A stretch of DNA of 64,000 nt, taken from contig CM082585.2 in NCBI GenBank assembly GCA_040954595.2, positions 2,944,902 to 3,008,901 on the forward strand, in the 5' to 3' direction. Below are positions 18,963-60,962 of the stretch, piece by piece. Both the position numbers and the translations under genes were made by a program. Origin of the DNA: Balanoglossus misakiensis. Lineage: Eukaryota > Animalia > Hemichordata. Position 1 is the stretch's first letter, and every line of letters starts with the position of its first letter. The notes under the pieces were generated by a model. That model ran no database searches. It had not been told where the DNA came from and saw only the letters and a list, made by a program, of their open reading frames with translations.

Positions 18963-18963
18963 A

Positions 18964-19020: not shown

Positions 19021-19021
<1 letters not shown>

Positions 19022-20489: not shown

Positions 20490-21863
20490 GTGTGTGAGAC
20501 ACACTCACTTTCTTACATATTATTTTTAAAATTCACAACTCACCACTCTCGGCTAGTCTTGGTGATATAAATGCACGATTGTGTGTCACACAGCGGGAAA
20601 TTATAATAATGCCGCACAAATCTGATTGAAACTCCCCTTTGAAGCAACGGTTGAGGTAATGATAAAACAGCAACTAGTCTTCAATATAATAGATATCAAT
20701 TCACTGGTCAAATAAAATCGAATTTTCACTCCGCTCTTTTTTGAGATAATCTTCGTTAAATAGTTTAGCCATAGACAAACCACTTGCGAAAAAATGACTC
20801 AGCAGTTTTCGCGAATTGCCGTCTAAATTTATGGGCCTTGTATTTTTGAAAGGAACGCGGCAACCCCTATATTCTTTTACGGTTTGTTATTATACTTGCA
20901 GATGTGAAACCAAAAATCGACAATCAAAAGAAATGACAAAACTTTCAATGTTTCTGATCGTACATCCTTAAATGTCATTCCAGCAAATTTGAAAAATATG
21001 TTGTCGATAAGGAAGTATATTAATCACTTCCACATCAGCGTAATTGCATTTGGCATCAAAGTTATTACTAAAGTATCCTTAGTAGCGATTGATGACAATG
21101 TGTAGCAAAATGCATCTGCCTGATTTGCTGTAGGCCTAAAACATCACCGGCAAAACGGGGATTATCGGCATATCACCTATCAAGAGCGTGCCACGCCCGT
21201 GAATGTAAGCCTTATGCCTCAGTGATACAGGAGATACTGTAGGATATGCCATATGTTACGGATCTGCGAATGGAAACACAGTTACGAATATCAGTGTCAT
21301 CAGCGTCTATGCTGCTTTAAAACTGTGAATGTTGGAACAGGTCCTATCAGCTGTTAAACGTGTTTACCCCCCAGATATGTTGTTTGGTCAGGAATTGAGG
21401 CTATGATTCAAAGAATCATTTGTCGTTAGAAAATGCTCACGTTACTGATCTCTGAGCGTATAGTATGATATCTTATTGGTCACACCCATATCATTGTTTG
21501 CTGGCATCTGTCTGGCTAATTCAGTAGCAAGACTGTCGTTGGATTAGTCACAGGTCAGGCTGTACGGTGTGCTACGCCAGTTCCTGAATGACGAAACGGA
21601 GCAGGTAAGAAAACGTTTCTGTCTCGGATTAACTTTGACCATCTCTTCAAGGTCTTTGCTTAAACTGTTACAAACGTTCATCGGGTACTTCACTGGCACT
21701 TTGTAGTTCGGACAAGTTACCATAGCATAATCTATTGTCGGAAATAATAGACGAAAATTAAATATTATATTTATAGTCTTCCCAAATTGAGCAGGGTAGA
21801 ACACAGGATAATAACGTTGTTTTCGCCGATTTCCCTTTCTTGTCGATAGGATATATCATTTAT

Positions 21864-21945
21864 ATGACTATGGAATATCAAACTGCTGCATGGATGATGT
21901 GCCTGCTGGTCGCCTTTACCAGAACAGAATGGACTGATCACAAAG
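21864..21945 (+). CDS. Putative signal-peptide exon of the GPCR (GC donor)
   Basis: [27 protein letters not shown] ending AAAG|GCACGT in phase 1, which matches the next exon. Confidence 0.45.
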
Positions 21946-24900
21946 GCACGTTTCAAACATCAAGTAGTATGTGGAGGGGGAGTGTGAGAGGGTGAGAGAG
22001 AGGGAGACAGAGAGAGGGGAGTGGGAGAGAGAGGGAGACAGATGGAGAGCGAGAGAGATAGAGAAAAGGTGAAGGGAGAGGAGAGAGGAAGAGAGAAAAA
22101 ATAACAGAGGGAGAGGAAGGAAGAGAGGATGAGAGAGTGACAGACAGATACAAACAAGAAACATACGCATATACATTGTATCTCTGAAAAGCCTGTTATC
22201 CGAACTACGCATTCTTGGTCTGACGATCTTAGAATAGTTGACCGCAATTAAGTTAGTGGTTTGCAAAGATCGTACTAGTCCTCCCTGCATTCGCACCAGG
22301 CTGTCCATGTGGCACGACTTTGTAAGTTTTTTTTTCTTCTCGACCCGCAGAATGCTGGATAAAAAAGTCGGGGAGAAACCCTTGTAATCAGGGCACCTTT
22401 CTTGCGAAACATCTGTGCGAACTAGCTGGCTGTTGTTGGGACGCCACGACAAGGATATCTTCCCAAAAATGTTTCAGCCCACACGATGACAACAAAGGTA
22501 AAGTACTGCTCAACTATTAAATAATAAGATGGTTGAATGGCATATTTTTGGAGATATGAATTTATTTCTATGCATGTTTATCCAGATTTAACAGTTAGAA
22601 GCAAGATGTATGTGTCAGATTCAAAGGTCTAGAAATCAAATATTCAACCCAGCGATCTGTTGCTCTTCTGAACCATCAGTAAGTTTAGATTAGGAATAGC
22701 GTTCATGTATGACTCCCCTGAATACAAAATAACGTTAGGCCAGTCCATGTTTATGTTAGACTCTCTCACAGCCCCTCTCGCCGTCCATGCGGGCTCATAG
22801 TCTGATTGCATGTGTGCCCGGCGAGAGGGGCTGTTAACACTATTTTTCTCTATTTTATTTTCGATCTTTCGATTGACTAATCCAAATCCCGCCCTGGATT
22901 TTGCATTTTCTCTGCCATTGGTCCATGCTCTTGAGATTGATCTTTGTGTTTACAAGATCCAAAGCACTTCTACTGTCTATGATTGCAGACTCCCCATGGT
23001 TAACCAGATACTAGTTTCACTTACATTACGCAACAATGCATTCTATTGCTGTGAACACTTGTAAACGATCTCTTTCACACCACAATGTTTAGCTTACAGC
23101 ATATTCAAGCGACTGGCGTATTTGCAAAAAAAATCAATGTAAAATCGGCAGTTTGAGAGAACAAGTTTGGCATAACCTGTCTAATTTTGCCATATAAATC
23201 TGCTGCTTGTGATTAAGTTTGGACATAGCCTGGTGGCACTTTGTACCGTACAGTGAAATTAAGAATTGGTTGGTTTCATTGGGGTTCATCCTGCCTACAT
23301 GGCCATGGTAGACTAAACCTCACAATGTTGTTTTATTCTTTTACATTTCATGAATAAAACGTATGTAGTTGTCTTTATCTAGTGTAAAACCACCACTGTC
23401 TTTTATCTGGTAGGAATGTTATGCTGTTTGGATAGTAAGGGGACTTGTTGTTTGTCCCAAGGGGATTTAAATTAGTATACATCTGGTATCAGGTTTACCC
23501 ATATTCGCTAGAGCAGATCTGTCAATCTTGGTACTCAGGAAACCCCTTCTCCATCACATCGGGCAGGAATCTTGCCCAATGTGCTCAGACGCTTAGCCAA
23601 TCAGAAAAATCGAAAATATATTCCCAAAAATAAGTGTTAACAGCCCTAAGGTTCGCTACACAACACCAAACGGTGCTTCTCCCTTGCCAAACGGTTGAGG
23701 GCGCGTCAGTGAAGAGCCTTGTTGTAGCGAACCGTGGGCTGTGAGAGAGTCTAATGGTTATGTGTGCCTTTCCTGTGATGCTTTACCCCTTGTCCTTTTC
23801 CTCTTCCTGGCAGTGACAGTTAACATAGCTTTGAACAAGTTCGTCCAATATTCTTTGGGCAACGGCTGGAGTACGGTCGACGGGCGCTATCCGACAGACC
23901 CCAACGCGGAAGAGACCAGCATGGTCAGTTGGGAAGGTCGGGGCGGGCTTACCACAGAGAAAGAAGTGCGAAATCTGGCTCTGCAGTACTGGGACTATGT
24001 GGACAATTTCTCAGAGAACTGCCATATAATCATGGGCTATTACAACGAAAGCAAGTACATTGGCCTATATAATGTTGTTATTGATCTCCACCGGATGTAC
24101 AACGTCTACCTTGTGCGTTTTTGCATCAGAGAAGCTGACCGTAAGCTATCATTTCCATCTGTCACCATCGCTAACTGAAACTATTTTAGCATGCATTAAT
24201 TTTGATGTGCCAAACATCATCTCACTTGCAAAGTCTCAACATTCGTGATTACATTTTTGAAAGAACAGATGTCTTATTCCTGAAATGAAACAAGTGACCT
24301 ATCGGTCAAAAGAGCTCTGCTGACTTTAAAAGTGTAACGTGGGCAATGATATGAATACCCTAGGTTTTAATTCATAACAATTGTATTATATTGAACAAAA
24401 CAAAACATAGACTTTAAAAGTATTTATCAAAATTCAGCTTGATTCATTGTGCTAAAGAAAGAAAGAATTGAATCCTAAAGAACAACATCAAAAGGAAGCA
24501 CCAAGGTTCTAATTTGCATATTCATGACCCCATCAAAATTCCAATTAACAAAATCAGGTAGGGGCACCATAATACACATTCCTACCAAATTTCAGCTCCA
24601 TCGTACATGTAGTTATGGAAAAGAAGATTTTTTACCAAAAAATCTATTTTTAGATCTTATTTGCATATTTATGACCCCATCATATCCAAAAATTCTATTT
24701 TGATCTAATTTGCATATTCACGACCCCATCAAATCCAAATTTACAAAATCAGGTAGGGGCACCATAACACACATTCCTACCAAATTTCAGCTCCATCGTA
24801 CATGTAGTTACGGAGAAGAAGATTTTTACCAAAACTTCTAATTTTAGATCTAATTTGCATATTCATGACCCCATCAAATCCAAATTAACAAAATCAGTTA

Positions 24901-27900
24901 AGGGCACCATAACACACATTCCAACCAAATTTCAGCTAAATATGCCAAGTTGTTTTAAAGAAGAAGATTGAAATACAAAAAGTTGACGGACAGACGGACA
25001 ACGGACGGACACTTATCAACCTACTGCTACAGCTCGGCTGACACAAGTGACAGCAGAGCTAATAAAATGATATGAAATAAAATTAAATTAAATTAGGCGT
25101 ATATTCCATGTTAGACCCGAGGTGGTTTTCACCATCTTTTCACCATAGCTCTTCTTGGTCACCAACAAAGCAATAGGGCTCGCAGAGTGTTCTACTGTAA
25201 TTCAACGGATCCATTTTGGGCTGCCACATTTATAATTTTCATTTTCGGCGAGATCTGTCACAGCGCAGTCAGCGGTAGATATGGCGTGTATCACCCCAAT
25301 ATGTAATAATTAACCCAATATGTAATAACACCTTAACCCAATATGTAATACTAACCCAATATGTAATAACACCTTCACCCAATATGTAATACTAACCCAA
25401 TATGTAATAACACTTAACCCAATATGTCATACTAACCCAATATGTAATAACACTTAACCCACTATGTAATAAACTTTAATTCTACATGTAATAAACGTTA
25501 TCAGCTAGCTGCATATGTAATAAACGTTAACCCTATATGTTATAGACTTGAATTTTACATGAAATAGACGTTTTCAGTTAACCCTATATGTAATAAACGT
25601 TAACCCTATATGTAAAAAACTTTAATTCTACATGAAAAAATACGTTATTAGTTAACCCTATATGTAATAAACGTTAACCCTATATGTAATAAACTTTAGT
25701 TCTACATGAAAAAACGTTAATTCTACATGAAAAAAAAAACGTTATTAGTTAACTCTATATGTAATAAACGTTAACCCTATATGTAATAAACTTTAATTCT
25801 ACATGAAATAACGTTAATTCTACATGAAAAAAACGTTATTAGTAAACCCTATATGTAATAAACGTTAACCCTATATATAATAAACGTTAACCCTATATGT
25901 AATAAACTTTAATTCTACATGAAATAACGTTAATTCAACATGAAAAAAACGTTATTAGTTAACCCTATATGTAATAAACGTTAACCCTATATGTAATAAA
26001 CTTTAACTCAATATGTAACACTAACCCAATATGTAATAACACCTTAACCCAATATGTAATACTAACCCAATATGTAATAACACCTTAACCCAATATGTAA
26101 TACAGTAGACCCTCGCTAAGTCGCGCCTCAATAAGTCGCGGTTTCGGCTAAGTCGCGGGTTACAGTATGGCTCCCATTATTTTCTTTGTTTTTCCCCCGA
26201 CATTTTGCTTTGTCGGCCACATCTCAAAATGTTTCAGTAATTTTGTATTTCTTTGCGCGCGGCCGATCGACTGAGGCGCATCACCAGGGCCAATAAAGCT
26301 GTGAACGTGTTGCGGTATGTCAAAATGATCGAACATGTCAATCACGGGAGTTGACAAAATACGCAATAAAGTGGTGTCGCGGTTTGCCTTTGACGGTACG
26401 GCCAAACAATTAACGGTGAATTTGATTAAACGTGTGATGCCAATTTTCACGATTTCTTGGCGGCACGTCTTTGCAAGAGCGCAATAAAATGTCCAAGCAA
26501 TTGGAATGGTTATCATTCTGACCTCACATTTCGAACTGAGCAGTATGTCTAAGCGAAAGTTGGCCAGCGTTTCCGTCCGCGAGAAACTTTCAGCGATCGA
26601 GCGAGTCAAGAACGGCGTCGCGAAAGCGAAGGTTGCACGTGATTTGGGTGTAGGCGAGTCCACTATCCGAGGGTGGATGAAGACCGAGGAAAAGCTGCGA
26701 CAGTTTGTTTTCGAAGTCGATGAGGAGGCGGGGCTGAGCAGAAAACGGGCGAAACATGTAATGGTTACATAAACAGAAGTACGTTATCGCGTTTTCAGTC
26801 AATACCCCCCCCCCATCCCCCTTTTCATGGCCCCTCGTTAAGTCGCGGCCCTCGCTAAGTCGCGGTTTTCCCGATGGACCCCGCCACCCGCGACTTAGCG
26901 AGGGTCTACTGTACTAACCCAATATGTAATAACACCTTCACCCAATATGTAATAACACTGCCCTAATGTATTTTAATGCTAAGCTAAATGAAATACACCA
27001 AATCAATATGAAATTATATCTGAATATGAATTAAAATCCTTACTAAACATGTTTTAAAACTAAACTCAATGTTTTTCATTAACCCAATATGTAATAACAC
27101 TTTAACCCAATATGTAATGGTAAAGGTGGCTTGTATTTTTTTTACAGGGGGGGGGGGGTACATTTGTCTTTCTGGGAAAAGACCATAATATTATTTCATC
27201 TATTTTCAATAGAGGTGGTGATAGAGGGGGCAACCCTATTGTTTAACATACTTCCCGCTTAACCCAACGAATTACTTGCAAGTTCCGGTAGCATTTGATA
27301 GTCCTGGTAAAGTTAACATAGTGATATATTTACCTAACCTTTACACCCACACGAAATCCAGGTAAATTTTGTTGTTTGAACCTCTAGCTTTATGCTATAT
27401 TTCGCAAAACTATTACTATCGGCTGTTAGTATACGGATCCACCCACTAGGGGACTGCAACCACCGGGCTAATTTCCCACATTTGTCTCGTATCACCCGAG
27501 GTGGGGAGGCGCCGGGGGTATGTTGGGGATTAGAAAATTTTGTAAAATAAAGGGCGCGAAACTGCAATTTTGTGGACTCAAAAGCACAAGTTTTGTGGCA
27601 AAAATATGTGAACCCCCTTAACGTTTTAAAAAAAAGATGACCCTCCCCCCCCCCCCCCCCCCCCCCCGCTTTTGGACTTCTAAATTAAGAAAGGTATACT
27701 TGACGCGTAAGGCGTTCAATATCAGTATCTGTTTCACTTTTGACGGGCAAGTAGTGTGCACGGATGGTAAAGTGTACCCGCCCCCATCTCAGGGTTGATG
27801 TGTCCTGATGTATATGGCTTCATTAATACATCTAAAATTTGGAAATTTTCCATGTCAATTATGTGTCCTGGGTAGTCTCTGTATATGTCTGGAAGCTTCC

Positions 27901-30900
27901 ATCTGAGACAATATGTTGATGTCACGCATGCTAACACAGCTTGATTTCAGTACTTTTATAAAGAATTGAGTTTTACTTCAACTCTATTGGGTTAAGGTGG
28001 CATTGCATGAAAAGTTGTGATTTTTGCCAAATTTTACTTTTTTACATAAATCGGTAGGCCTAATACTCACCCACATCCTGACTAATACGTCTTGGCGGAA
28101 ATGGTGCACAATCACCCCCAAATAGCACTTTTCTGAATGAGTTCACAGCTTAACAAATAGGTGTCAACAATGCAAATGGCCGTTTTTCTCGGTTTGCATT
28201 TTCGCTGCTTTTGACAACTTCGGACTAAAATAGCTTCGCCCTGCATTGGCCGAATTTGCTCAAATTTTGACAGGGAATTGTGTATGACCCATCCAACAAA
28301 ACGCTAGTTTTGTTTGTCGATAAAGTGTCCCTGGCGGGAATAAACTCTGATTCAATACAACTCACCGTGAATTTGATAACATTTTCAGAAAATCTAACTT
28401 TCAAACGCTGTTACTCCTCAATGGAAGCAGATAACGCAAAACAAAATTAGCGTTTTTTTGCATGTGTACTTTAGTTTCGAATGACATATTAAGATGCATG
28501 ATGCATGGTCAACTTTTTTACCTATTTTAAATTTCATGACATAATATCAAAAATGGTTTTTTTCACCCAAAATCGCCACCATTTCCGGGGATCAATAATA
28601 TTTGCAACTCAAACAAAAGTTCAAAATCTCAGCTTCCAGAATATATATGGTTTATGGGGGTTTAAACTTTGTCTTTGATGAGAAATAGGCCTCTGAAAAA
28701 GTCTCGACGGTTTCATGCAGTGCCACCTTAATATTACATATTCAAACACATTAGGACAGTGTTATTACATATTGGGTTAAAGTGTTATTACATATTGGGT
28801 TAGTATTACATATTGGGGTAAGTTGTTATTACATATTGGGTTAGTGTTACTTATTGGGTTAAAGTTTATTACATATAGGGTTAACGTTTATTACATATAG
28901 GGTTAACTAAAAACGTTTTTTCAAGTAGAATTAACGTTATTTCATGTAGAATTAAAGTTTATTACATATAGGGTTAACGTTTATTACATATAGGGTTAAC
29001 TAAAAACGTTTTTTCAAGTAGAATTAACGTTATTTCATGTAGAATTAAAGTTTATTACATATAGTGTTAACGTTTATTACATATAGGGTTAACTAATAAC
29101 GTATTTTTTCATGTAGAATTAACGTTATTTCATGTAGAACTAAAGTTTATTACATATAGGGTTAACGTTTATTACATATAGGGTTAACTAATAACGTTAT
29201 TTCATGTAGAATTAAAGTTTATTACATATAGGGTTAACGTTTATTACATATAGGGTTAACTAATAACGTATTTTATATCCCTGCACCAGAATAGACCTGT
29301 ACTGGTCATTTTGCTCTGTTTGTGGGAGATACAAAAACACGACACAACCAGAATTGGCGGAAAATGGCCAAGAGATATTGACCCTTTATTGCAAAGTTAA
29401 CAATGTGTAAAGATGATGAAAAATTCCTCGCCAGTTGCCTGCCTCAATAAAACAGCAAAAACCTCAACAAGGTAGGTATAGGTCAAAGGTCAACCAGCGA
29501 GGAAAATTAACATAACACTAAACACTGTAAAATAGGTACATAAAGAATCTCCCACAAAGGTGTGGGCCTAAAAACGCCTCTAACAACTACAATCCAATGC
29601 GACAATGAGATAAGTAAAGATACAAAGTCCATGTAAGCTCTAAAATACATATACCTCCGTCCCATACGACCTAGGTAGGGGAGGTAGATGGGGATGCGGT
29701 GGTAGTGAAAATTCGATGAGATGAACCAGCTCGTTGTCTTGAAGTCACGGCTGTAAAATGGAAAAGGCTGTTCCTAGTATTGACTCCCCCCCCCTATAGG
29801 AAACTGCAAATATTGTCAAGGCGGGAAAATGAAGTTGCTCTTCCATGAAGTGTCTCCCCCCGGAGACTAAAGTTTTGTAAACCTCCCTGTCGGATAATAG
29901 AAAACTGCAAAACTTGATCACTAAGAAGCATGTCTATAAATGCGATTATAATAGTGATTATAATCGTGCTTTTATATCCCTGCACCAGAATAGACCTGTA
30001 CTGGTCATTTTGCTCTGTTTGTGGGAGATACAAAAACACGACACAACCAGAATTGGCGAAAAATGGCCAAGAGATATTGACCCTTTATTGCAAAGTTAAC
30101 AATGTGTAAAGATGATGAAAAATTCCTCGCCAGTTGCCTGCCTCAATATAACAGCAAAAACCTCAACAAGGTAGGTATAGGTCAAAGGTGAACTGGCGAG
30201 GAAAATTAACATAACACTAAACACATAAAGAATCTCCCACAAAGGTGTGGGCCTAAAAACGCCATAAGCCACACCCTGGTGTGGCCGCCCCACCCAAAAT
30301 GACCAGACCACCCCAGGGAAGGACCCTAAAAACACCATCCCCTGCTCTTGATAGCCAGAAGCCTAACAATTGGTTACCAAGATGCTGGTTGCCTAATGTA
30401 CCCCTTAAAAGCATCTGACTTCCACCTGCCTAAGGCGTGTATCTGTGCATCAGACAAACCGTCTTTAGCAGCTTGAGAGGCTGCTCCTATCCTAAAGCTA
30501 TGTCCCTTGAACCTGTCTACCTCAAAGCCGCAAAAAGTGAGCGAACGCCTAAGCTGTGCCGTGAAATCTCCCCGTCCTATGCCTAACGGCCCTGGCATGC
30601 AGAAAAGAGGGCCAGGCTCACTCCCCCTCAAACGACTAAATTCCCACAATGCCTTAACCGGACACAAGTCGGACCTAAGAACCTTCTGAAATTTGATAAC
30701 AAATACATCGCCTGGTTTACTGTGCTTAAAATTGAATAAGGACACAGTTGCTGACTGTGGCAAACCTGCGCTAACCTGAAACTCCAACTGGTGGAAAAGA
30801 ATGGCTTTTCCAACATCAAACCTATTCCGAACTGTGAATTTCCCAATCCTGAGGTACCCATAGAAGGCTGATAAGAACATAGCCTTAAAAAGAGAACGCT

Positions 30901-33900
30901 GATAAACAGATGTGACCACATTTGGAATGGCCTTAATCAGACGAAGTAGGATATCCCTAGTGATAGGGAGACGATCATCTCGTTGATGCACCAGCTTACG
31001 GTATGACTGGACCAATTTGTGAACCAAAAAGGACTTAGTAGGGTCCTGCAAGCCTGCAAGTTTATGAACGTAGCTAATGGCTGACAAATAGGTAGAAACA
31101 GTGGATGGGGCAAGGTGTTGCCTAGAGAGGTGACCAATAAACAATGTGACCGAGGATTCTGACAGCAGCAGAGATGGACAATGCACCCCTAACTGGCTAC
31201 CCATGAACTATGTAAGAACTCTCCAAGCACGCTGATAGGTTGACCTGGTAGAACTGTGAAGAGCCTGCTGCAGAAGTCTGCCTACTTCCATGTCCAATGT
31301 ATAGGTAGCAACTGAGACGGCACTGGAGTCGGATAGGTATCCATGCCCCGAGATGCAGACTTGAACTGGCCTACCTGCAAGCGGGAAAGACAGTCTGCCA
31401 AAATGTTATGCTTACCAGGAATATGTTTAGCTCGAAAAAGAATGTTGTACTGAAGGCTAGTGAGCACAATCCGTCTAACCAAAATCAAAAGGTCCCTGTC
31501 CTTCGCTGTTTGTTTATTCAAGACTGACACCAAGGCCTCATTATCAGTGTAGAACATCACACGTTTGTTACATAGCTTTTGTCCCAAACCTCTAACGCCA
31601 GCATGATAGGGAATAACTCCAGGACTGCGATATTTAGTGCATGCCAACTAGTAGGCCACTCTCCAAAGAACCAGTGAGAACCAAAAATGCCACCATACCC
31701 AAGAGACCCAGCTGCATCTGTGAACAAACGAAGTGAGTCGGATGAATGCCACCGATCCTCTATAAAAAACGACTTCCCGTTGTAATGGTCTAGGAACTGT
31801 TTCCACACTAGGAGGTCTGCTTTAACCTCTCTGGTCAGACGTAAAAAGAAGTGCGACTTCTTGACCCCTTTCGTTAAATCGATCAACCTACGTAAAAATG
31901 CCCGTCCTGGGAGCACCACCAAACAAGCAAAATTTAAGGTCCCAACCAATGACTGAATTTCCTGTAGCCTAACCTTTCTTCTAGACAAAAAGGAATTGAT
32001 CAAGTTGCGGCACCGAAACAATTTATCCTCTGGGAGCCTAGATTCTCCTAATACAGTGTCTAATTCGATACCTGCGAAAACCAAAGTAGTACTGGGCCCC
32101 ATGGTCTTATCCTGAGCAATAGGAACCCCCAGTTCTGCACAAAAACCTAGGAATGTCTGTAGATCCGCTGAACACCGTTCTTTGTTACTAGCCAGAAAAA
32201 GGAAATCGTCTAGAATGTGAATAACAGCCTCCACGCCTGCAACCTGATGAGACATCCACTCTAATGCAGTACTAAACTGTTCAAAAATGCGACAGGACGA
32301 CGAACACCCCATAGGCAGACATCTATCAAAGAAGAAACACCCATCCCACTTGAAACCCAACAAGCAATGATCCTGAGGTGCCACTGGTATGATTCTAAAT
32401 GCTGACTTGATGTCAGTCTTAGCCAAAAAACATCCCGGGCCCAACCTCAAAATGATCCGAACTGCATCATCAATGGTGGCATACTGAACAGTTGCCAACT
32501 CAGGAGGAATACCGTCATTAACTGATGACCCCGGAGGAAAAGAAAGGTGGTGAATAAACCGAAACTTACCGGCCTGTTTTTTGGGAACAAGACCCAATGG
32601 GGAAATGTGGAAGTTGGGAAAAGGTGGTGAACGAAAGGGCCCTGCGACCCTGCCTGCATGTACCTCAGAAGTAAGCATGACCCTAACTGCTTCAGGATTG
32701 TCAAGTGCAGACTTCAAATTAGGTGATGACCCCCCGCCCCTATGACCACAGTACTTTATTGAAAAACCATGTGAAAAACCTGCCAACAAATACGCCGCCT
32801 TGCTCTTGTCGTAGCCGTGTAGAAACTGCCTAAGAACTTGAACCTTTACTGGTGACACTATTATTGGCAACGGAGGGCTGTTTGGACACCACGGAAGCTC
32901 TGGAAGCGTGGTAGGGACCTCCTCCTTTTCCAGAGTGAAAGGGCTGATGGACTCCTTCCCCACTGCTGAGACTAGATGAGCTTTTGACACTACACATGGA
33001 AATGGGATGGTTTACCCCACACTTAAAGCACTTGTGGTCGAAGCGACATCCAGGGCAGAACTTTCCTGAGTGAAAACGCCAACAAACCCCTTTCGGAAAG
33101 GACGTACTGGAGAAACCCGAAATGGAACTGTTACTGCTAGACATGGGGGCAGCCCGATCAGAAGACAAATTCTTAACCCTATGTATGGCCTGTAACCACA
33201 ACTCCCAGTGAATCTGGTCTCAAGGAACAGGAGTCGACTGCTTCATAAAGCGAAACTGCTCATCGTAAAACTTCCAGCCCGCTTTTTTGGCAGCTAGATC
33301 CGGCACCACTTCCCCATACTTCAAAAGGCCTGCAATGTCTTCAGGCTTTCTCAATGTGTACACAGCTACAAAGATGTTAAAAGCTGAAATCCACTGCTCA
33401 ATGTAAGTAATTTTCTTAGCACTAGCAACGGGCTCTAGACATAGCTGAGGCCTACCAACACTATCAGATAAAGCGACGGTGTATTTACCATCACGCAGGG
33501 AGGGATTGATGAGCAAAGACGCGAAATCGATGTAATCACCTGCCCAGATTTTAGCCTTAACCTTATCCGACACCCTTGTAACCAAGGGCATGGATTGGCT
33601 TGCAAACAGTGTGGTAGGTTGACGCTCTGTCTCAGACCCCTGAATAGTAGGTGTTAGATTAACCTGACATGCAGGTTCATCCTGGACCTGACCTTGTGGT
33701 AACGACTCAACTTGCACCTCTGGACCAGTAGTGTCATGGATGACTTGATTAGCGACTGATGAAGATGCGGTGGCTGTCGCTGTAGGTGGGCTTGCAGCGG
33801 GAAAAAGGCCGGCTTCTTTAAGACTCTTGACGACTGCCTTAGATATTGAGGTAGCTAACGCATCTGGGTCGATGGTTGAACTTGGGGCCGGCTGTTCTCC

Positions 33901-51900: not shown

Positions 51901-54900
51901 TTCAAGCCCCTATAGCAACATCATTTGATATTTAGAAACATAGAAATTTCATTTATAAAATCTGCATCAAATATTGGCATTTCTGTGTAAATTAATCTGC
52001 TGCATAATTGCTTGCTTTAGTTATCTTTGTGCATGCAAAATCACAAAGATTTATGATTTCCACTCTAACACAGCAAGAATCTAATCACAAATACATGCAG
52101 TATGAATATAGAATACAACAATCCATTAGTGAAGCAAAACATAAAAATGACCTTTAGTGAAGATGCATACATTGCATTCAGTGCATTTATGTGCTTTCTA
52201 GGGTTAAACTATTGCATAGAATCCACCACCACCATACACAATGTACACCATCAAGGTAAAATAACTACTTACATGGAAGTAAATTCAGGACAAGACTGAT
52301 TGGATTGCTGGTTTGAACAAAAAAATTATATTTTTATTTCAATTTAATCTCGACATTCTTTGAAAATCCATAGAGACACTCAAACAGGTTGACATACATC
52401 AGCCTCGACTTGTGATAGACAAACACAATGTACAAAGGCAGTATTGCCTGATTAATGGCCAGTCGACTCTGTATAGTATTCAATCGTCCATGACACACTG
52501 TGAAAAATGATTTGATTATCACTGAGCACATACTACGACTGCGGAAGTTTTGACATATTTGACAAGGGACCGGACATCCATCTGCGCCAGTACCATACAA
52601 GCACAACATCGTCTGACTTAACATGCATTCAGAAAACGGTAGAAAACATAACTGTTTCTTTGTTTTTCAATGGAAATAGGATGAACCTAACGAAATTAGC
52701 TCCTTGGGCTTGTAAGAGTTTGACAGTTGCCGTCATCGGCGCCGTGACCATGTGCAGATCTGCACCCTGGTCAGTGGGACCTTTATGTCCTAGTTTGACA
52801 GTAACGCCATGGTCTGGGTATTTCTCTTCATTGCCAACTTTACATATTATTTTCATGACATCAGAAAATGTTGTGGTGTCAGAGACATCACACACCCATT
52901 GCTTCTCTTCGAAAACTCTTCCCCCGGCCTCGATGGCCTCAGCCATAAACGATAGACGCTGGTCTGACACGACCGCCATGATGAATATGACGTCAGATTT
53001 GCAGACTGATCTGCAAAATCTCACGATTTGCCGATGGTGGCGCTGTTGCTAGGATGATCGCCTCAGAGTCGGCGCAAATAAAACAGTTTTTTTTATTTTC
53101 ATGTCGGAGCTGAAATTTACGGTCGGTCGGGAGATGAGAAACACAGAAAATAAAAATGTCACCCTTATTACGAGAATAAAATATTCTTGAACAAATGATC
53201 ATTTACATAATTATTACTGCGCGCTTAAATTATAATGTGCTCCTATATTTTGCTTCCCAGATATTGAGTGCCCGTTGGGATGTACATGCACGGGATTTCA
53301 GTATGACTGTTCCGGTAACGATGTCGAATCGATCAGGGAAGTCGATCCGCTGATTGCGAGGTCACTGTAAGTTATATAGCCCTCACCCATATATGGTATT
53401 TGCCATATACCAATTATTATATGCCTATAATGTGCGCGTATTGGTACCATGGTACCAGCAAGACCAGTTGGTCTCCACTGAACAATAATTCGCATTGGCG
53501 TGTACTATGATGGCATACTTTAATGCATATTTTTACAAAGTTCGGAAATGATTTCCTTATCTAAAATGAACTGTTGATTTCAAAATCAGATATGTCTATT
53601 TTCTGCTATAAGTGGCTGTTACATTCTTACATTCGTGTAGAATTGTTCGCGATTTACGAGGAGGAATACTGGATCTTGCCGGGAATAACTCAACATGGGA
53701 AGAATTCTTTGACCCTTACATTCTGGTTGGCGAACTGTGAGTACAACACTATACATGTAAATGCCATCAATCATAGGCCTAATAGTGACGACGAGACTGA
53801 ATGATAACTACAAACGCCTTGTCTTCTCAAAACAATTTACCCTAGGAGATAGGTGCCGTTAATCAGAATTTTTGGTGAGGAAGGTTTGAGAAGTCCATTC
53901 TATGTAAAAAATGGTGCTGATTCCAAAAATGTCAGTCTTATTGACCCCACTCAAGACAAAATTGCCATTTTGGCCATTTTTAACCCAAAAATGGTATTTT
54001 TAGAAAACACTAAAAACACACTGTTTTCGTCACATTCTGAGATCTGATGACATACGATATACTTATTCTATGTAAAATTTGGTGAATATTACGAAAAAAG
54101 TAGTCCGATTGACCTAAAACAACACAAAATTGCCTTTTTGACCATGCAGCGCAGGTATTGTCCGAGACGCGCAGCGTCGAGGACAATACCGAAGCGTACG
54201 ATGTACGAGGACATAAATCCCGGTATTTTGTGAATAACCTTATTATTATACACCTTTTCCGGACGTCCTTGATGAACGATAAAGAATAAATTGGCCGCTA
54301 TCGGACTTTCTAGTTTTCAGACACTGCCATGATGTAATTTGCATATCGAACGCGCCTTGACCACGCGCATCAGGTGATGCTAGTGTCGAGCTGCCGACGT
54401 CTCGCGCGCGACGTTCTACGCTGCTTGCGCTGAGCTCGTTCTGGAACTTGAAATGAACGCGCTCGCCTGTTCGTTCACAGATTCCTTCGACTGAAATTTC
54501 AGCGTGGATTTTGACTTATTTCGCATCTTGGGTCACCAATAATTTTGTTTAATAACGGCTGTGTACTTTTTATATACATTTTTGTCAGAGTAGGGTTAAT
54601 ATCATTGTTTACATTGATCACCGGTCCTGTGAGGTCAAAGTCACAATGCGTCCAATAACCCTGTGGGTTATGGGACTCCGCGTCCTCATTTGAATAATTA
54701 TTGTACGGTGATACCGCGAATTATTGTATCACGGAACTCCATAGGTTACAGCAGTAGGTGTATAATAATATAATTTATATCATGATACCTCCGTCAAACT
54801 GATTGGACAGGAGTGCAACCCAACGATGCTAGAATACTCAATAGAGCACTGCTAAAACTGGCCCCTGAACTAGCACGCAGCAGGGAAAATGTGGGCTTAA

Positions 54901-57900
54901 ACCAAATAAACATAATACAAACACTTAAATTCCTTGACGTTTTAATTTGGAACTGCTGTTCATTAAGACTGCATTTCTGGAAACAACACCTATTTTACAA
55001 TAAATGTACTTTTCACACATCATAGAATCTCCAAATAATAAGAAAACAGTTTGAAAAGTGGCTTTTTGGGCAAAACGCACTGTTTTCTTGAGTGGCGCCA
55101 GTAAAACTTTTTGTTGGGAATTTTTTCACATAGAGTGGGTATATAATACATCATCATCTCCGAAAGTGAAGAAAATATAAGCACGATTATAATCACTATT
55201 ATAATCGCATTTATTGACATGCTTCTTAGTGATCAATAAAAGTTTTGGGTGGTTTCTAGAAATGACACTTTTTGAGCAAAAACTTGCCAAAAAGGCACTT
55301 TTATCTTGAGTGACATCAATAAAACTGCTTTTTTTTGGAAATTTTTCACGTATAGTGGGCATATAATACATTATCAGATCTCCGAAAGTGAAGAAAATAT
55401 ATAAATTTTGAGTGTTTTCTGAAAATGACGTTTTTGAGGCAAAAAGTGGCAAAATGGCATTTTTTTCTTGAGTAGGATCAATAAGACTGCTATTTCTGGA
55501 ATCAGCACCATTTTTTACATAGGATGAACATTTCATATATCACATGATCTCTGAGCTTTATGAAGAAAAGTTTGTTTTTAATGTTTTTTCTAAAAATGGC
55601 CTTTTTGGGCAAAAACTTTCCAAAAGGGCATTTTTGCATTAGGTTGGGTCAACAAATCTGCTTTTTTTGGAATAATCACCAAATTTTACATAGGGTGGGC
55701 ATATAATACATTATCAGATCTCCGAAAGTGAAGAAAATATATAAATTTTGAGTGTTTTCTAAAAATGACGTTTTTGGGCAAAAAGTGGCAAAAATGGCAT
55801 TTTTTCTTGAGTAGGGTCAATAAGACTGCTATTTCTGGAATCAGCACCATTTTTTACATAGAATGGACATTTCATATATCCAATGATCTCTGAATATGAA
55901 GAACACAATTTGTTTTTAGTTTTTTTGTAAAAATGACCTTTTTTGACCTCGAAAAGTGGCCAAAAATGGCATTTTTGTATTGATTGAGGTCAAAAAGACT
56001 GCTTTATTTTTTAAAGTCACCACTTTTAACATAGAATTGACTTTCCATATATCACCAGATAAATCATTATGTGTGTTTTATTTTTTTTTCTAAAAATGAC
56101 ATTTTTGGGGCAAAAAATGGTCAAAAAGGCAATTTTGTGTTGTTTTAGGTCAATCGGACTACTTTTTTCGTAATATTCACCAAATTTTACATAGAATAAG
56201 CATATCGTATGTCATCAGATCTCAGAATGTGACGAAAACAGTGTGTTTTTAGTGTTTTCTAAAAAAGACCATTTTTGGGTTAAAAATGGGCAAAATGGCA
56301 ATTTTGTCTTGAGTGGGGTCAATAAGACTGACATTTTTGGAATCAGCACCATTTTTTTTACATGGAATGGACTTCTCAAACCTTCCTCACCAAAAATTCT
56401 GATTAACGGCACCTAGCTCCTGGACTAATTGTCTTGCCCAAAATATGCTGAAAAATTGCTGTTCAGCGAAGCAGTGCGATCAGCAGTGCGCAATCGACGT
56501 TTTTCTGGCGGGTTGTCGGTAAAGTCCTCCCAAGCGATTGCAATAAACTCAGCCTGGCCAGACACCGGTTTGACGAGCTGTAAAATCCACTGACAAAGTA
56601 AAACTTGAAGTAGTGGCGGATTTAAAATTTTCCACAGACTCTTAAATAGGCAAGCAGAATCGTTGTTCACGGTCCCTCCGTGGGAATTGCCGAATGATAT
56701 TGTAATGTCCGAGCAATGGACCAAATGTGAGTCGATGTGTGTTAGATTGCTTGATAGGTACCCAATCGCGATTGCACCCGAACACGCGACTGGTTTCGAT
56801 ACTCCCTAGTCAGATCAGCAATCATTCGCTTAAACTAAAATACCATTATTCCAAACTGACGTAAACCAAGTTTCCGTAATCGTTGGCCTTCTCGTGTCCC
56901 CGACAGTTTGGTACGAGTTTGCGCCTTGAAGTTCAACGAATGATCTCACGACCAGCAACTGAGAGTCATTAGTAGAAGTATAATGCAACTGAGAGTCATT
57001 AGTGCGCTGTGGTCGCTACTCGAACACTCTCGCCATACGTAGGACTATCCACGAACATTCGAAAATTTAGCTTTGGCGAGACTGTACAGTATCAGGTTTA
57101 TGTTTTATAGATACTACTAGTACATGTTGAAGAAGTAGAGTGACTATGTTTTCTGTTGGTGGGGTCATAATTTACCACGTTTATATGATTGTCAACCGTG
57201 TGCTGAAAGTCAGTGATGTGTGCTTGAATCAACCAGTTGTATCAGGCGCGCGAGTATAACTACGGCTACGACTAGACTGTTCGCACCACATACTCCTGTT
57301 GTTTTGCATCATAGTCTCTTCATGGTGCTGTCCATGATTGCGGCAAAGTTTACACAACTCAGATCTCTCATAGCATGTACTCTTTGTTTGAAGTGTAATT
57401 GATCTCCTATATATAGCAAATTTTGAACACTTTACACCTCTGCGCGTCTCTGAAGATTGACAGCTGTTTGAATGACATGGCCATTGTCTCCCAGGGACGC
57501 GATCCATTGTTCTGAAAAGCACTGAAACCAGATTTCGCTCAAAATCATCGTTTTTTCAAAAGCTCGTGTACTTTTTCGTCGATAACTTTATGTTGTGTGT
57601 GTTTATAAAGCCGACTACTGTCGTGGTGTGGAATATTTCTTTATGCTTAGACCTGTTTGGGCCGATTTTCATAGACCCAAGATTGTTGGTGTTGTCTGTT
57701 GTCAGTCAAACGGCATTAAGATTCGCCACCGATTTGGGGGCCTTTTATACCCCGCACCGGGGTTTAAGATTATTTACATTACTTTCTGAAAGCATAATCA
57801 CACATTTCATATAATGCCTATTATGACTTGCTGCAGCGATCTTTCAGGAAACCAAATAGAATCATTTTCGAGTCGTCTGTTCCAGGGATTGACTAACATA

Positions 57901-60900
57901 GCAAAATTGTAAGTATTTGTATAAGGTCAATTGACATGTGCAGTGTATTTATCTTCGTTTTTTGAAAATCTGCCAGGCGCTGTGTATTCTCAAGCAATGA
58001 ATTCTTTTATATTTTACCATACTGCACTTTTTTCCTGTCCCAGCGCAACACTGCCATGAGGTGAAATTGGAACAATACTATCGCTAATTTGTAATACACG
58101 CAGATCGTATCGTACCCTACGCATAATTTGAAACTGTATGCCAATAACTGATAAGAGAGATAATGTGGATTGTATATTCAGATTCCTATTATCCAAATTC
58201 CTTTTTCATCACATTGTGAAATTAACGAAAGTTAGTATAAAGGAAATGTATATTACTTTGCAGAGTAATAAGAGATAACGATCTTCTTACCTTGTCAGAA
58301 GGTATTTTTAACTCTGTACCTAAACTGAGACATCTGTGAGTATCTGACATTTTTTTAAATTGTTCAATGTGGCAGAAATGTGTTCATCCGTGACGACTTC
58401 CTGTTAACGAGCTTCTGTGCTTCGTGGGTTTTTATTCCATCATTCAACCTACGTCATTCGTATGTACATCAAAATTTGGAATTTGAATGTTCACAAAGAT
58501 CGTACTCAATATCATTGTGCATTACATGGTGGCAGATAACTAAAATAACTCTCAGAGCAGTAATCCTTTAGAAGGAATTTTTAGAACTCTTTTAGAATAC
58601 ATGTAGTTAAACAATTGTATTGTACAGAAGCAAATAAATGGCTTCTATGTTCTGACACAGTTGAATGTTTCCAGTGCGAGAACGCTGTCTGTAATTACAG
58701 TAACATATACATCTTTTCCGTCCTAGGAATATGGAGGTCAATAGAATTACCTTTTATCCCGAGACACTTTTCGATGAACTGGACCATCTCTCCAAACTGT
58801 AAGTATTACAGCCAATTGCGCTGTTTGTGATGGGGAAACAACAGAAATCCGCAATCTTGGCATACCTGCTGTCGCTCGAATGATCAAAGATATTTCATGT
58901 CCTTTGATTTTATGACAGATTGATCTTTGTGCCCACCGCAGTACATGTATTTCATTTATTCTTGCAATGCTTCGAAATATTTTCTTTGTTTAGCTTTAAA
59001 CTGGTGCAGAAAACATGGTCACTACCAAACACTCTCATAAAAATTATATTAAGAATTCCAGAGGCTGAAACATCGGCCTTGTTTTAGACGTCTCACTATG
59101 CCTATGTAGTTTCTGATTCGTTTTTTTTTTAATTCTATAGGAAAACCAAACTTATTGATAGAATGCTTTGAACGAAGGTTAATGTGGTCTTCTTATACAT
59201 TCCCTTGCAGTGTTTCTGATGATTACGCTTTCTGCTGTCTGGCCGGCTATGAAGAGGGTAGAATTACAGACTGTGTACCATCCAGTGACATATTCTCGTC
59301 ATGCACTGACTTGATCAGCGACACCTTCATGCGATTTGTCATCTGGGTCGTGGGGTTGGTAGCGTTCATCGGTAACCTGGTGGTGTTACTTCGACAGGTT
59401 AGTCTCTACGACACCGACAAAAGCAAGGTGAGCATGATACTGATCACCAACCTTGCTTTGGCGGACATCTTGATGGGCTCCTTCCTCATGATCATCGCCA
59501 TTGCCGATGTCTACTACAGAGGAATATACGTCACACACTCTAGACAGTGGAGAATCAACGACTTCTGCGTCATAGCTGGCGCAATGGCCACCGTATCCAC
59601 TTTGATGTCGGTGTTCATCGTGGGCCTCATGGCTGTGCAGTGTGCCTTGGTGGCAATGTTCCCTCTAGGCAATGTCTTCATCACGCCATTCGGTTCCAAA
59701 GCGCTCCTCTTCATTGCCTGGTCCTTTAGCGTGTTAGCTGCTGTTGCACCGAAGCTCGACTTTGAGTACTTCGACGAATTTTTCTACGGCCGCACTGGAA
59801 TGTGCCTGCCAATTCACCTGCACAGTGATAAAACGCCGGGGTGGGAATACGCCATGTTCATATACATTATCTCTGTTGGCGTGGGGATCATTGTGGCCGT
59901 AGGTTCCTATGTGGCAGATAGGGTTGGCAAGAAACGAAGTGAGGATTACAGTAACGTTCGCGTCAATATGGTTGAGGAGAGCCTAGTAGCAGTGACCTCT
60001 ATCTTGGTAAAAACTGACCTCCTGTGCTGGATACCCGTTGTTATCATTGGTCTATTAGCTATTGGAGGAACAGGGATCCACTCAAACCTGTATGCGTGGA
60101 CATTCATCGTCATTCTACCCTTTAACGCGGCTTTGAATCCGATTCTGTTCAACTACAGAAGTAAGGAGATAGTTAAGAAGAAACTGATGGAGGATGAAAA
60201 TGTCCGCCCAATCGGTAAAAATATAAGACATGTATAGACTAACTATGATCCCTCTGTCCCATAAGAAAAACCTTCGCTTCGTTCATCGACAAGGCATCAT
60301 AATGATTATTAATCAGGGTAGCTGGGATTGCTAGAGATTACGTCTATATCGCCCATACATCACACATCATTCACTGTTACATACTACATCCTCTCTTTTT
60401 TGATATACTATATTCAAAATCGGTGTCGACAATGACAACGGTTTTTAAATTAACACACACTATGCTAACATAGCTGGCCGTTTTAGCATTGTGGAAGAAA
60501 ACGAAATCTGGTGTTGATACACATACAACAAATACTGAAAAATTAGCCAAAAGATGAAGCTAGGGGATACGTTATGGCGACATATTCGATGGTATGCATG
60601 AGTTATTCGGACGATTTTTATTATGTTTACGAAGAATGATGATCTGGACAGTATCAAAGGTAGGAACTTAATGTCTATGAGAATCAGGCTCTCACTCATT
60701 TCTCTGTTATTCAGACCCGGCAACAGTGCAAGCTGTCTTTTACGATATTGTGACCACTCGATTGTTCTACGTGATTCCCCCAAGTCTAGTCGCTCACCTG
60801 TCAATGACAGCATGGCTGGCTTACAGCGAAGCCAACTACATCACTCAACTGGACATCAAAACTATGATCAATGACGTCAAGAAGGCGCTGTCAAATTTAT

Positions 60901-60962
60901 ATAAGCGGGGGCTCTACCATGGCAGTGTGGACTTCGATCACCTTTTAATTTATGTCGACGCT
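21864..60962 (+). CDS. Giant mosaic GRL101-like (LDLa-LRR, LGR type C) GPCR with a multi-lectin ectodomain and a C-terminal kinase-like exon; 3' end not located
   Basis: 28 exons join in phase with no stop (5631 nt). The LDLa array, LRRNT/LRR, hinge (FCC..C.P..DIFSSC.DL) and 7TM fit GRL101-like receptors. Confidence 0.8.
21975..22150. repeat. GA-rich low-complexity repeat
   Basis: Degenerate (GA)n purine tract. Confidence 0.9.
22351..22497 (+). CDS. Trefoil (P-type) domain exon
   Basis: [25 protein letters not shown] six-cysteine pattern, 147 nt, phase 1-1. Confidence 0.8.
22757..23753. mobile_element. Non-autonomous TIR element with TAG...CTA ends (Academ-like)
   Basis: TIR tagactctctcacagccc / gggctgtgagagagtcta, flanks atgt and atgg, subterminal hairpins at both ends. 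Confidence 0.75.
23814..24140 (+). CDS. F-type lectin/discoidin-like domain, first half
   Basis: NIALNK..TVDG..NCH..VIDL..YNV..V..R, 327 nt, phase 1-1. Confidence 0.75.
24290..25064 (-). mobile_element. Helentron/HINE-like non-autonomous element, copy 1
   Basis: Terminal hairpin agctcggctgacacaagtgacagcagagct, (GGAC)n tract and ~137-bp internal tandem units. A second copy in opposite orientation lies at 61159-63495. Confidence 0.7.
26103..26911 (+). mobile_element. Internally deleted Tigger/pogo transposon
   Basis: TA TSD, 23-bp TIR cagtagaccctcgctaagtcgcg and repeated subterminal taagtcgcg motifs. Confidence 0.92.
26545..26772 (+). CDS. Truncated pogo/Tigger transposase (HTH_psq/CENP-B N-terminal domain only)
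   Basis: [49 protein letters not shown]. Confidence 0.75.
   Translation: MSKRKLASVSVREKLSAIERVKNGVAKAKVARDLGVGESTIRGWMKTEEKLRQFVFEVDEEAGLSRKRAKHVMVT
27996..28727. mobile_element. Non-autonomous TTAA element (Kolobok-like), copy 2, inverted relative to copy 1
   Basis: Same TIR and TTAA TSD as 14710-15444, with a reverse-complementary body. Confidence 0.9.
30374..31280 (-). pseudogene. Tyrosine recombinase of the Ngaro element (frameshift near 31205)
   Basis: [19 protein letters not shown] and [11 protein letters not shown] motifs. Confidence 0.9.
31282..32990 (-). pseudogene. Reverse transcriptase/RNase H of the Ngaro element (frameshift near 31560-31600)
   Basis: [37 protein letters not shown] and [15 protein letters not shown] motifs. 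Confidence 0.92.
32830..34005 (-). pseudogene. Gag-like ORF1 of the Ngaro element (stop at 33961, frameshift near 33220)
   Basis: [19 protein letters not shown] and a C-terminal Cys/His finger CWRF..C..CRFDHKC..CG..H..C. Confidence 0.8.
35871..36407. mobile_element. Non-autonomous TIR element (MITE)
   Basis: ~27-bp TIR cattacgttaccactccattaaaa, inserted in the right arm of the foldback element. Confidence 0.8.
36725..36991 (+). CDS. F-type lectin/discoidin-like domain, second half
   Basis: ..[23 protein letters not shown] matches the C..GRYV..L..CEVEV pattern. 267 nt, phase 1-1. Confidence 0.75.
37639..37758 (+). CDS. EGF domain exon
   Basis: [35 protein letters not shown]. Confidence 0.93.
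37872..38069. repeat. (TACA)n microsatellite
   Basis: Seen directly in the sequence. Confidence 0.97.
38852..39127 (+). CDS. Link (Xlink)-like module exon
   Basis: [25 protein letters not shown] four-cysteine pattern, 276 nt, phase 1-1. Confidence 0.72.
39312..39760 (+). CDS. FA58C/discoidin domain, exon a
   Basis: [39 protein letters not shown]. Confidence 0.92.
40264..40417 (+). CDS. FA58C/discoidin domain, exon b
   Basis: [20 protein letters not shown], phase 0 to phase 1. Confidence 0.9.
40983..41285 (+). CDS. PAN/apple domain exon
   Basis: [20 protein letters not shown] four-cysteine PAN core, 303 nt, phase 1-1. Confidence 0.78.
41758..42195 (+). CDS. CUB domain exon
   Basis: [47 protein letters not shown]. 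Confidence 0.93.
42404..42622 (+). CDS. C-type lectin exon a
   Basis: [34 protein letters not shown]. Confidence 0.9.
42872..42953 (+). CDS. C-type lectin exon b
   Basis: [23 protein letters not shown], phase 1 to phase 2. Confidence 0.9.
43320..43480 (+). CDS. C-type lectin exon c (QPD, galactose type)
   Basis: [23 protein letters not shown]. Confidence 0.9.
43871..43909 (+). CDS. Linker micro-exon
   Basis: 39 nt, phase 1-1, ttttgacag acceptor and GTAAGA donor. Confidence 0.6.
43925..44070. repeat. Compound (GAAC)/(AATC)/(GGAT) microsatellite
   Basis: Seen directly in the sequence. Confidence 0.9.
44273..44392 (+). CDS. LDLa repeat 1
   Basis: [26 protein letters not shown]. Confidence 0.93.
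44619..44726 (+). CDS. LDLa repeat 2
   Basis: [25 protein letters not shown]. Confidence 0.93.
45217..45339 (+). CDS. LDLa repeat 3
   Basis: [25 protein letters not shown]. Confidence 0.9.
45921..46055 (+). CDS. LDLa repeat 4
   Basis: [26 protein letters not shown]. Confidence 0.9.
46396..46563 (+). CDS. LDLa-like repeat 5 (GRL101-type variant)
   Basis: [24 protein letters not shown]. Confidence 0.88.
46802..46924 (+). CDS. LDLa repeat 6
   Basis: [30 protein letters not shown]. Confidence 0.92.
47218..47337 (+). CDS. LDLa repeat 7
   Basis: [32 protein letters not shown]. Confidence 0.9.
47614..53164 (-). mobile_element. Zator-like DNA transposon, full length, inside a GPCR intron
   Basis: TTA TSD on both sides, imperfect TIR GGGTGAC...TTTCTCATCTCC, and a transposase with DDK, DHDF, DGGPD and APG.S..N..ER motifs. 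Confidence 0.82.
47750..52981 (-). pseudogene. Spliced Zator-like DDE transposase (frameshift near 49600)
   Basis: Exons near 52981-52652, 51694-51561, 51353-~48575, 48322-48160 and a last exon ending [15 protein letters not shown]. The C-terminus is Cys-rich. Confidence 0.75.
53261..53366 (+). CDS. LRRNT exon
   Basis: [20 protein letters not shown], phase 1 to phase 2. Confidence 0.9.
53641..53736 (+). CDS. Divergent LRR exon
   Basis: 96 nt, phase 2-2, LDLAGNN..F...V.EL. Confidence 0.7.
53845..56420. mobile_element. Foldback-type element with ~300-bp TIRs and internal tandem subrepeats
   Basis: 53845-54142 is reverse complementary to about 56118-56420. Related subunits repeat across 55000-56100. 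Confidence 0.85.
54143..54815. mobile_element. Crypton-like non-autonomous element nested in the foldback
   Basis: Hairpin gtattgtccgagacgcgcagcgtcgaggacaatac, inverted repeat tattattatacacc (~54242) / ggtgtataataata (~54757), and a ctgattgg motif. Confidence 0.55.
57837..57908 (+). CDS. LRR exon
   Basis: 72 nt, phase 2-2, [25 protein letters not shown]. Confidence 0.92.
58264..58335 (+). CDS. LRR exon
   Basis: 72 nt, phase 2-2, [25 protein letters not shown]. Confidence 0.9.
58727..58798 (+). CDS. LRR exon
   Basis: 72 nt, phase 2-2, [25 protein letters not shown]. Confidence 0.9.
59211..60214 (+). CDS. Hinge and rhodopsin-class 7TM exon (GRL101/RXFP-like)
   Basis: [66 protein letters not shown] and [13 protein letters not shown]. 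Confidence 0.95.
60715..60962 (+). CDS. Cytoplasmic exon resembling protein-kinase subdomain VI (pseudokinase-like)
   Basis: The phase-1 acceptor matches the 7TM exon donor. Encodes [32 protein letters not shown] and ends in a GTAAGT donor. Confidence 0.65.

Follow-up and report, generated by a model that had tools for sequence, protein, structure and literature searches.

The receptor gene and its ectodomain

The window analysed here is a 64,000-nucleotide (nt) stretch of the hemichordate Balanoglossus misakiensis (assembly GCA_040954595.2, contig CM082585.2, positions 2,944,902 to 3,008,901 of the forward strand). On its plus strand lies a probable receptor gene running from an ATG at 21864 to 60962, in which 28 exons, all joined at GT-AG sites, make 5,652 nt or 1,884 codons without a stop (Table 1). 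A preliminary description of the locus had given about 1877 codons; its 28 in-phase exons and their domain order were borne out, and its assignment to GRL101-like mosaic G-protein-coupled receptors (GPCRs) held through the PF00001 match, the order of LDLa, leucine-rich repeats (LRR) and hinge, and the relaxin receptor RXFP1 as best PDB match. That description missed the loss of residues used for G-protein coupling and a highly conserved pseudokinase-like tail, and this combination is the stranger part of the receptor, more so than the ectodomain. The relative most often compared below is the Ptychodera flava protein XP_070548178.1 (P0008), annotated as 'GRL101-like'.

Table 1. Exons of the receptor gene and mobile elements in its introns (window coordinates; 7TM, seven-transmembrane domain).
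Feature	Position	Strand	Evidence or remark
Exon 1, putative signal peptide	21864..21966	+	no Pfam match; best 11-residue hydropathy 2.3
Exon 2, trefoil (P-type)	22351..22497	+	PF00088 29.3 bits, cutoff 21
Exon 3, first part of ~200-aa domain, possibly galactose-binding-like/F-type jelly roll	23814..24140	+	ESM Atlas lead
Exon 4, second part of exon 3-4 domain	36725..36991	+	phase 1-1, splice sites in top 3%
Exon 5, EGF	37639..37758	+	PF00008 40.9 bits
Exon 6, Link (hyaluronan-binding fold)	38852..39127	+	PF00193 33.4 bits, cutoff 27
Exons 7-8, FA58C/discoidin	39312-39760, 40264-40417	+	PF00754 E 4.5e-6; local HMM 2e-22
Exon 9, PAN/apple	40983..41285	+	PF00024 21.2 bits; FA58C-PAN tandem also in P. 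flava paralog P0123
Exon 10, CUB	41758..42195	+	PF00431 63.9 bits
Exons 11-13, C-type lectin	42404-42622, 42872-42953, 43320-43480	+	QPD and WHD; Lectin_C, local HMM
Exon 14 (linker) and exons 15-21, seven LDLa, fifth atypical	43871..47337	+	6/7 above PF00057 cutoff
Exons 22-26, LRRNT and short LRR	53261-53366, 53641-53736, 57837-57908, 58264-58335, 58727-58798	+	Pfam weak, local HMM
Exon 27, hinge and 7TM	59211..60214	+	PF00001; 72% to P0008
Exon 28, pseudokinase-like half-domain, gene runs on past it	60715..60962	+	81% to P0008 over 72 aa
Intron 3, filled by nested mobile elements	25295..36574	.	long inverted repeat arrays, CENP-B-type helix-turn-helix (HTH), minus-strand reverse transcriptase
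Probable DNA transposon, intron 21	47614..53164	-	39-nt terminal inverted repeats, TTA on both flanks
Fold-back element, intron 23	53837..56428	.

The exons were joined by coordinates, and the in-phase chain is partly selected because the junctions were chosen by eye with the reading frame in mind; its independent support is the domain boundaries and the homologs. Twenty of the 27 junctions are in phase 1, six in phase 2 and one in phase 0. When splice sites were scored leave-one-out by position weight matrix against background sites, 19 of 28 donors and 11 of 27 acceptors fell in the top 5%, and eight acceptors were weak, those of Link, PAN and CUB among them. The model lacks its 3' end: exon 28 closes at a strong phase-0 donor, about 50 further C-terminal residues of P0008 have no counterpart in 60963-64000, and the last exon probably lies outside the 64-kb window. 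A possible last exon at 61850, though its acceptor is strong, was rejected, as it resembles neither the P0008 end nor the tail hidden Markov model (HMM). Apart from a transposon HTH, no missed domain exon was found in 100 plus-strand intronic or flanking open reading frames (ORFs), a subset of the 200 listed (102 sequences submitted) from which mostly transposon and repeat interiors were left out. An Rfam search gave no match. The signal peptide of the preliminary description is plausible from the hydropathy of exon 1. An acceptor-like site at 21850, just 5' of exon 1, makes a 5' non-coding exon possible, and the receptor may have a non-coding first exon at 21554-21604 (plus strand), where a weak acceptor is followed by a strong donor at 21604.

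Pfam was run exon by exon with the gathering score as cutoff. Trefoil, EGF, Xlink, CUB, six of the seven LDLa and 7tm_1 (profile positions 1-259 of 260) scored above it, while F5_F8_type_C (27.2 vs 28.2), PAN_1 (21.2 vs 21.4) and Lectin_C (19.9 vs 22.6) fell slightly below; the discoidin, PAN and C-type lectin (CTL) domains were confirmed by local profiles or homologs. The fifth LDLa, LRRNT and LRR were weak in Pfam. The atypical LDLa5 pattern is also present in 52 homologs, and in the short LRR region (LRRNT plus four exons) exon 26 is 87% identical to P0008. The CTL domain is split across three exons and, when joined, matched a local HMM at E 4e-34. It has QPD at the calcium site, with WHD in place of WND. 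QPD favours galactose, and it occurs in 13 of 37 family CTLs, so the sugar-site motif is family-wide. The Link module has the Link fold with its four cysteines, and its PDB matches, aligned over the first two thirds of the module only, were aggrecan and LYVE-1. The sole RKR-type basic cluster of the ectodomain stands in exon 10 at residue 852 (near 42170), between CUB and CTL; it is short of a full furin consensus and might be a shedding site.

The F-lectin-like label given earlier to exons 3-4 is unproven. These exons had no relevant Pfam match, exon 3, exon 4 and the trefoil exon had no significant PDB sequence match, local HMMs were negative, and the scores against two of four pairwise targets were reached by 2 and 8 of 300 shuffles. 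Passages of PMC5712786 give HX24RXDX4(R/K) as the F-type lectin fucose motif; by eye, the candidate histidine of the domain stands 34 residues before R-x-x-D-x4-R, and no hDGx motif was seen. A single-exon, single-sequence fold model of exon 3 had a predicted local distance difference test score (pLDDT) of 43, too low for use. An ESM Atlas feature score of 0.89 to F5/8 type C clusters leaves the label as a lead only.

The seven-transmembrane domain and the tail

The 7TM is nearest to relaxin receptors, with RXFP1 the best of 18 PDB matches (E 1.6e-36). Four coupling features were scored in 150 gap-free 7TM rows, after 6 of 156 were set aside for gaps: D/E3.49, R/K3.50, a basic residue at the inner end of transmembrane helix 6 (TM6) and Y7.53, the TM6 numbering being our own count from a conserved aspartate. 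All four are kept in 139 rows, eight rows lose one and one row loses two; only the window receptor and P0008 (2/150) lose all four. The window receptor has QC at 3.49-3.50, AV at the TM6 inner end and NPILF. These two proteins alone (2/156) also carry a mid-TM6 lysine before the TM6 aspartate. Between them 33 of 38 hinge residues and 28 of 31 residues of extracellular loop 2 (ECL2) are identical, against 6 of 18 in intracellular loop 2 (ICL2). ECL2 keeps, as CLPI, the C-hydrophobic-P-hydrophobic motif that passages of bioRxiv 10.1101/2022.01.22.477343 describe as essential for RXFP1 activation. Also kept are D2.50, the TM6 CWxP and N7.49-P7.50, and Y5.58 is present in the window protein but lost in P0008. 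Judged from its sequence, the window receptor has lost the residues used for G-protein coupling, with the outer switch intact.

Exon 28 had no relevant Pfam match, although Pfam kinase reached E ~2e-5 in some relatives. A tail profile seeded from three other receptors, with the window excluded, matched the window tail at 2e-7, and after iteration it recovered 48 of 103 tails, including that of Nematostella and those of two canonical hemichordate GRL101s. For the 130-residue tail of P0008 the predicted fold had a pLDDT of 86. In a wide structure search its best match had Z 9.4 with a root-mean-square deviation of 4.6 over 118 residues, and nearly all matches listed were kinases or pseudokinases. 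The Foldseek rows listed were kinases too, led by the JAK1 pseudokinase (TM 0.55, E 0.019), and Atlas gave TM 0.60-0.68 to kinase folds, below its naming bar. At about 130 aa the tail is too short for an N-lobe; its HRD reads HGS, and the HRD aspartate is present in only 4 of the 48 tails. It cannot be an active kinase for these two reasons, and it is predicted to fold as a dead kinase half-domain. The kinase-like exon of the preliminary description is thus retained as a kinase-fold fragment, by the model of the P0008 tail, and not as a working kinase. Two canonical hemichordate GRL101s (P0001 and P0011) and Nematostella P0090 have longer kinase-like tails, with weak Pfam Pkinase matches in P0001 and P0011; the longer tails suggest an old GPCR-kinase fusion.

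Relatives, phylogenetic position and neighbouring elements

Searched against the full library, the 7TM exon had 4,187 matches; the best 150 of these were examined with 7 from another search, and P0008 was the closest among the best 150. Giant mosaic GRL101-like receptors are common in annotated genomes. CUB and/or CTL stand ahead of LDLa-LRR-7TM in 38 of the 155 nearest 7TM relatives, from cnidarian to hemichordate, discoidins occur in 13 of 156, and several CUB/CTL relatives also have discoidin, EGF or PAN. These mosaics, a grouping made in our analysis and not a formal family, reach 3,282 aa, with kringle, ApeC, SRCR, MAM, PAN and EGF as extra modules and named examples from sea anemone, coral, nemerteans, bivalves, snails, echinoderms and hemichordates. 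The core CUB-CTL-LDLa-LRR-7TM-tail is collinear, in single alignments over 1,100-1,500 residues at 29-34% identity. It is shared by Acanthaster XP_022098818, P. flava XP_070531728 and XP_070532232, Lineus XP_064641999, Ostrea XP_048738543 and Nematostella XP_048584250, though in the last CTL and LDLa are placed further upstream than in the window receptor. In front of the core there is often discoidin, EGF or PAN, and the CTL is often QPD/WHD. The mosaic relatives differ from the window receptor in that DR, the basic TM6 residues and NPxxY persist in nearly all of them, and in that trefoil and Link were not found in 51 Pfam-scanned proteins or in the unannotated stretches of 38 long relatives (trefoil pattern in 0 of 155). 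The preliminary description did not recognise the architecture; this stands for trefoil and Link, but because mosaics of CUB, CTL, discoidin, EGF and PAN recur in relatives, what is new in the ectodomain is the arrangement, not the design.

In main texts of the literature, no description of the window architecture or of a kinase-like tail on GRL101 was found in the passages seen. The main text of PMC10140915 has no 7tm, GPCR or LDL, that of PMC13554239 no GRL101, and PMC11521371 and PMC13619432 give nothing further on the architecture. The supplements of PMC12297450, PMC11863921 and PMC10140915 may list such architectures. Passages of PMC6267866, PMC4079206, PMC2396169 and PMC13403566 deal with LDLa/LRR variants and with sensory or haemocyte expression, and the window architecture and the tail are not among them.

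The window protein has the features of a type C leucine-rich-repeat-containing GPCR (LGR), namely a relaxin-type rhodopsin-class 7TM, LDLa followed by LRRs and hinge, and the ECL2 motif, which supports its placement as a GRL101-like (type C2-like) LGR with a mosaic ectodomain. Canonical GRL101 (type C2 LGR; Lymnaea) likewise has multiple LDLa, LRR, hinge and a related 7TM, and its hemichordate copies also have the kinase-like tail; however, it is described with 12 LDLa, 6 LRRs and no lectin modules, and with IGF-like peptides as proposed ligands (passages of bioRxiv 10.1101/2021.04.15.440029), whereas the window receptor has 7 LDLa and eight other module types. P. flava has a separate canonical copy, P0011. 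RXFP1 (type C1 LGR) shares the hinge and the ECL2 tethered-agonist motif, but in passages of bioRxiv 10.1101/2022.01.22.477343 it has one LDLa, a peptide ligand and Gs coupling with K3.50, Y5.58 and Y7.53. The SudRes2 CTL-GRL101 cluster of Biomphalaria sudanica combines CTL, LDLa, LRR and 7TM, yet according to passages of PMC12297450 only CTL is added there, in a tandem cluster of 12 whose G-protein activation the authors assume.

In a 45-row 7TM tree of our own selection (P0083 was left out for its short match; row P0066, labelled ambulacrarian, is a nemertean), the window receptor and P0008 share a stem of 1.92 substitutions/site and fall outside the canonical GRL101 clade (99/96). Deeper down, the tree does not place this long branch: topology tests retained it both as sister to the whole GRL101 clade (p 0.09) and as sister to the RXFP-like clade (p 0.11). 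Grouping with the hemichordate canonical GRL101 pair, named after the tree was seen, was rejected (approximately unbiased test, p-AU 0.005). Among about 22 relatives, 7 (CTL), 13 (CUB) and 10 (LDLa5-7) are more divergent than the window protein, so the ectodomain core evolves at ordinary rates; among 23 7TMs, that of the window protein diverges most, in each of its halves. P0069 (XP_070545973), a further fast-evolving paralog in P. flava, has lost D3.49 and adjoins the window pair in a quick tree only.

The three long introns consist mostly of mobile elements, and without these they would measure ~1.3, 0.4 and 1.5 kb, comparable to the remaining introns (184-1,316 nt). The intron 21 transposon has ORFs of 624 and 378 aa without a Pfam family match. 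A DIRS-like retroelement in intron 3 (30377-33960, minus strand) has a reverse transcriptase and a second ORF without a Pfam match, which we take from its motif to resemble a tyrosine recombinase. LINE-type reverse transcriptase ORFs with a gag/protease-like fragment lie at 3942-6473 (plus) and 627-1985 (minus). Upstream of the receptor, a separate-looking gene (12387-20489, plus) has a signal peptide stronger than that of the receptor, a C-type lectin with EPN, HYR and a REJ-like fragment. It stays open for 341 codons if a weak donor at 14508 is used, and its phase permits splicing into the trefoil exon; if spliced at 21850 in phase 0, its stop would overlap the receptor ATG.

Proposed signalling and alternative explanations

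We tentatively favour, while holding it somewhat short of probable, a mosaic GRL101-like receptor that engages glycan or matrix, is uncoupled from G proteins and signals through its tail. From the frame, domains, family, motif losses and tail conservation given above, we infer its ligand, activation and output as follows. The FA58C-PAN-CUB-CTL-LDLa-LRR stalk would be older, with trefoil, the jelly-roll-like domain, EGF and Link joined to it later by phase-1 exon shuffling. The stalk might bind a large glycoconjugate multivalently (mucus, matrix or a microbial surface), with the QPD CTL as the best candidate site. Binding may relieve LRR/hinge autoinhibition of ECL2, by analogy with RXFP1, whose 7TM is 70% active when stripped of its ectodomain, and partners docking on the tail as a scaffold, not G-alpha, would read the 7TM change. 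The pattern-recognition or matrix-sensor role suggested in the preliminary description is reasonable, given that passages of PMC12297450 report a genome-wide association study in snails tying CTL-GRL101 clusters to parasite resistance and propose pathogen recognition.

The tail core is more conserved than the 7TM between the window receptor and P0008 (86% vs 72% identity), whereas the remaining 38 of 39 related pairs show the reverse. Several points weigh against the tail-signalling reading. This contrast rests on a single pair, the pairs are not independent, and the tail columns were picked on the window protein; recent exon exchange between paralogs could yield the same pattern. The tail occurs family-wide, including in receptors with intact coupling motifs, and Foldseek found nothing for it at E<=0.001. 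Change in the 7TM extends beyond the G-protein face, its extracellular half being fast-evolving as well (39% vs 49%). The 487-aa P0008 record begins at the last LRR, and the comparison with it starts there. Five carbohydrate-binding folds, as first described, is too strong a statement because among the putative carbohydrate-binding modules the CTL alone keeps a sugar-site motif (QPD, WHD) and the fucose motif is not matched. Exons 1-6 are joined to the rest by phase and spacing alone, and queries with exon 3 or exon 7 gave no ortholog piece for the N-terminal exons (190/262-2000-aa proteins).

A non-signalling capture, adhesion or decoy receptor comparable to atypical chemokine receptors or LRP-type scavengers, in which the 7TM would chiefly anchor the protein and the tail would serve as adaptor for trafficking or the cytoskeleton, is unlikely but deserves serious attention. 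The loss of all four coupling features, the most divergent 7TM beside a normal ectodomain core, and the seven LDLa, which from general knowledge fit ligand uptake, all agree with it. The retained hinge and ECL2 switch, D2.50, TM6 CWxP and N7.49-P7.50 go beyond what an anchor needs.

We regard it as distinctly unlikely that the receptor is a pattern or chemical sensor of the usual G-protein-coupled kind, tolerant of its odd motifs. LGRs do vary at 3.50, where RXFP1 has Lys (passages of bioRxiv 10.1101/2022.01.22.477343), the window protein keeps Y5.58, and parts of the literature tie GRL101-like genes to sensory organs and resistance loci; but none of the other 148 relatives loses more than two features, the same Y5.58 is gone from P0008, and ICL2 is poorly conserved.

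Other gene boundaries are improbable. Exons 1-9 (or 1-6) might be a separate or alternatively polyadenylated secreted protein, as reading on past the exon 9 donor gives a stop two codons later and a single AATAAA lies in intron 9; alternatively, the upstream CTL-HYR-REJ-like gene might splice into the trefoil exon, its HYR and REJ-like exons ending in phase 1, which fits exon 2. The weak Link, PAN and CUB acceptors agree with such boundaries. However, the exon 9 donor ranks among the best 1% of background sites, AATAAA occurs in 12 of the 27 introns, and no signal-peptide exon was seen by eye in the 472-nt intron 9. Homologs are collinear across exons 9/10: one BLAST alignment joins model residues 467 (FA58C) to 1878 (tail) with the nemertean receptor P0039, crossing the 41758 boundary, and the FA58C-PAN tandem aligns to P0123 (E 1e-10). 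By this alignment and this recurrence, homology carries the one-gene case from exon 7 on, and the 28-exon frame likely forms one gene. A decaying, pseudogene-bound paralog under relaxed selection, which the long stem branch and the three introns hit by mobile elements might suggest, is most improbable against 1,884 codons without stop or frameshift and losses common to P0008, with 86-90% identity kept in hinge, ECL2 and tail.

Type C2 LGRs are termed orphan in passages of PMC11863921, and beside the single canonical GRL101 stands a large set of modular relatives with exon-shuffled ectodomains, many of which carry a kinase-derived tail; we found no description of such a tail in the literature. 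The window gene and P0008 are a natural experiment on the function of this tail and on LGR signalling without G proteins. More doubtful is the wider claim of a GPCR lineage with swapped output, which would have kept the tethered-agonist switch, discarded G-protein coupling and passed signals from a lectin- and mucus-sensing stalk through a fused kinase-lobe scaffold. If true, this lineage would be a receptor pseudokinase on a class A GPCR body, and GRL101-type receptors would share, from cnidarians to hemichordates, an overlooked tail derived from a kinase. A GPCR bearing trefoil and Link would also connect a receptor with the sensing of mucus or matrix, in an animal that feeds with mucus.

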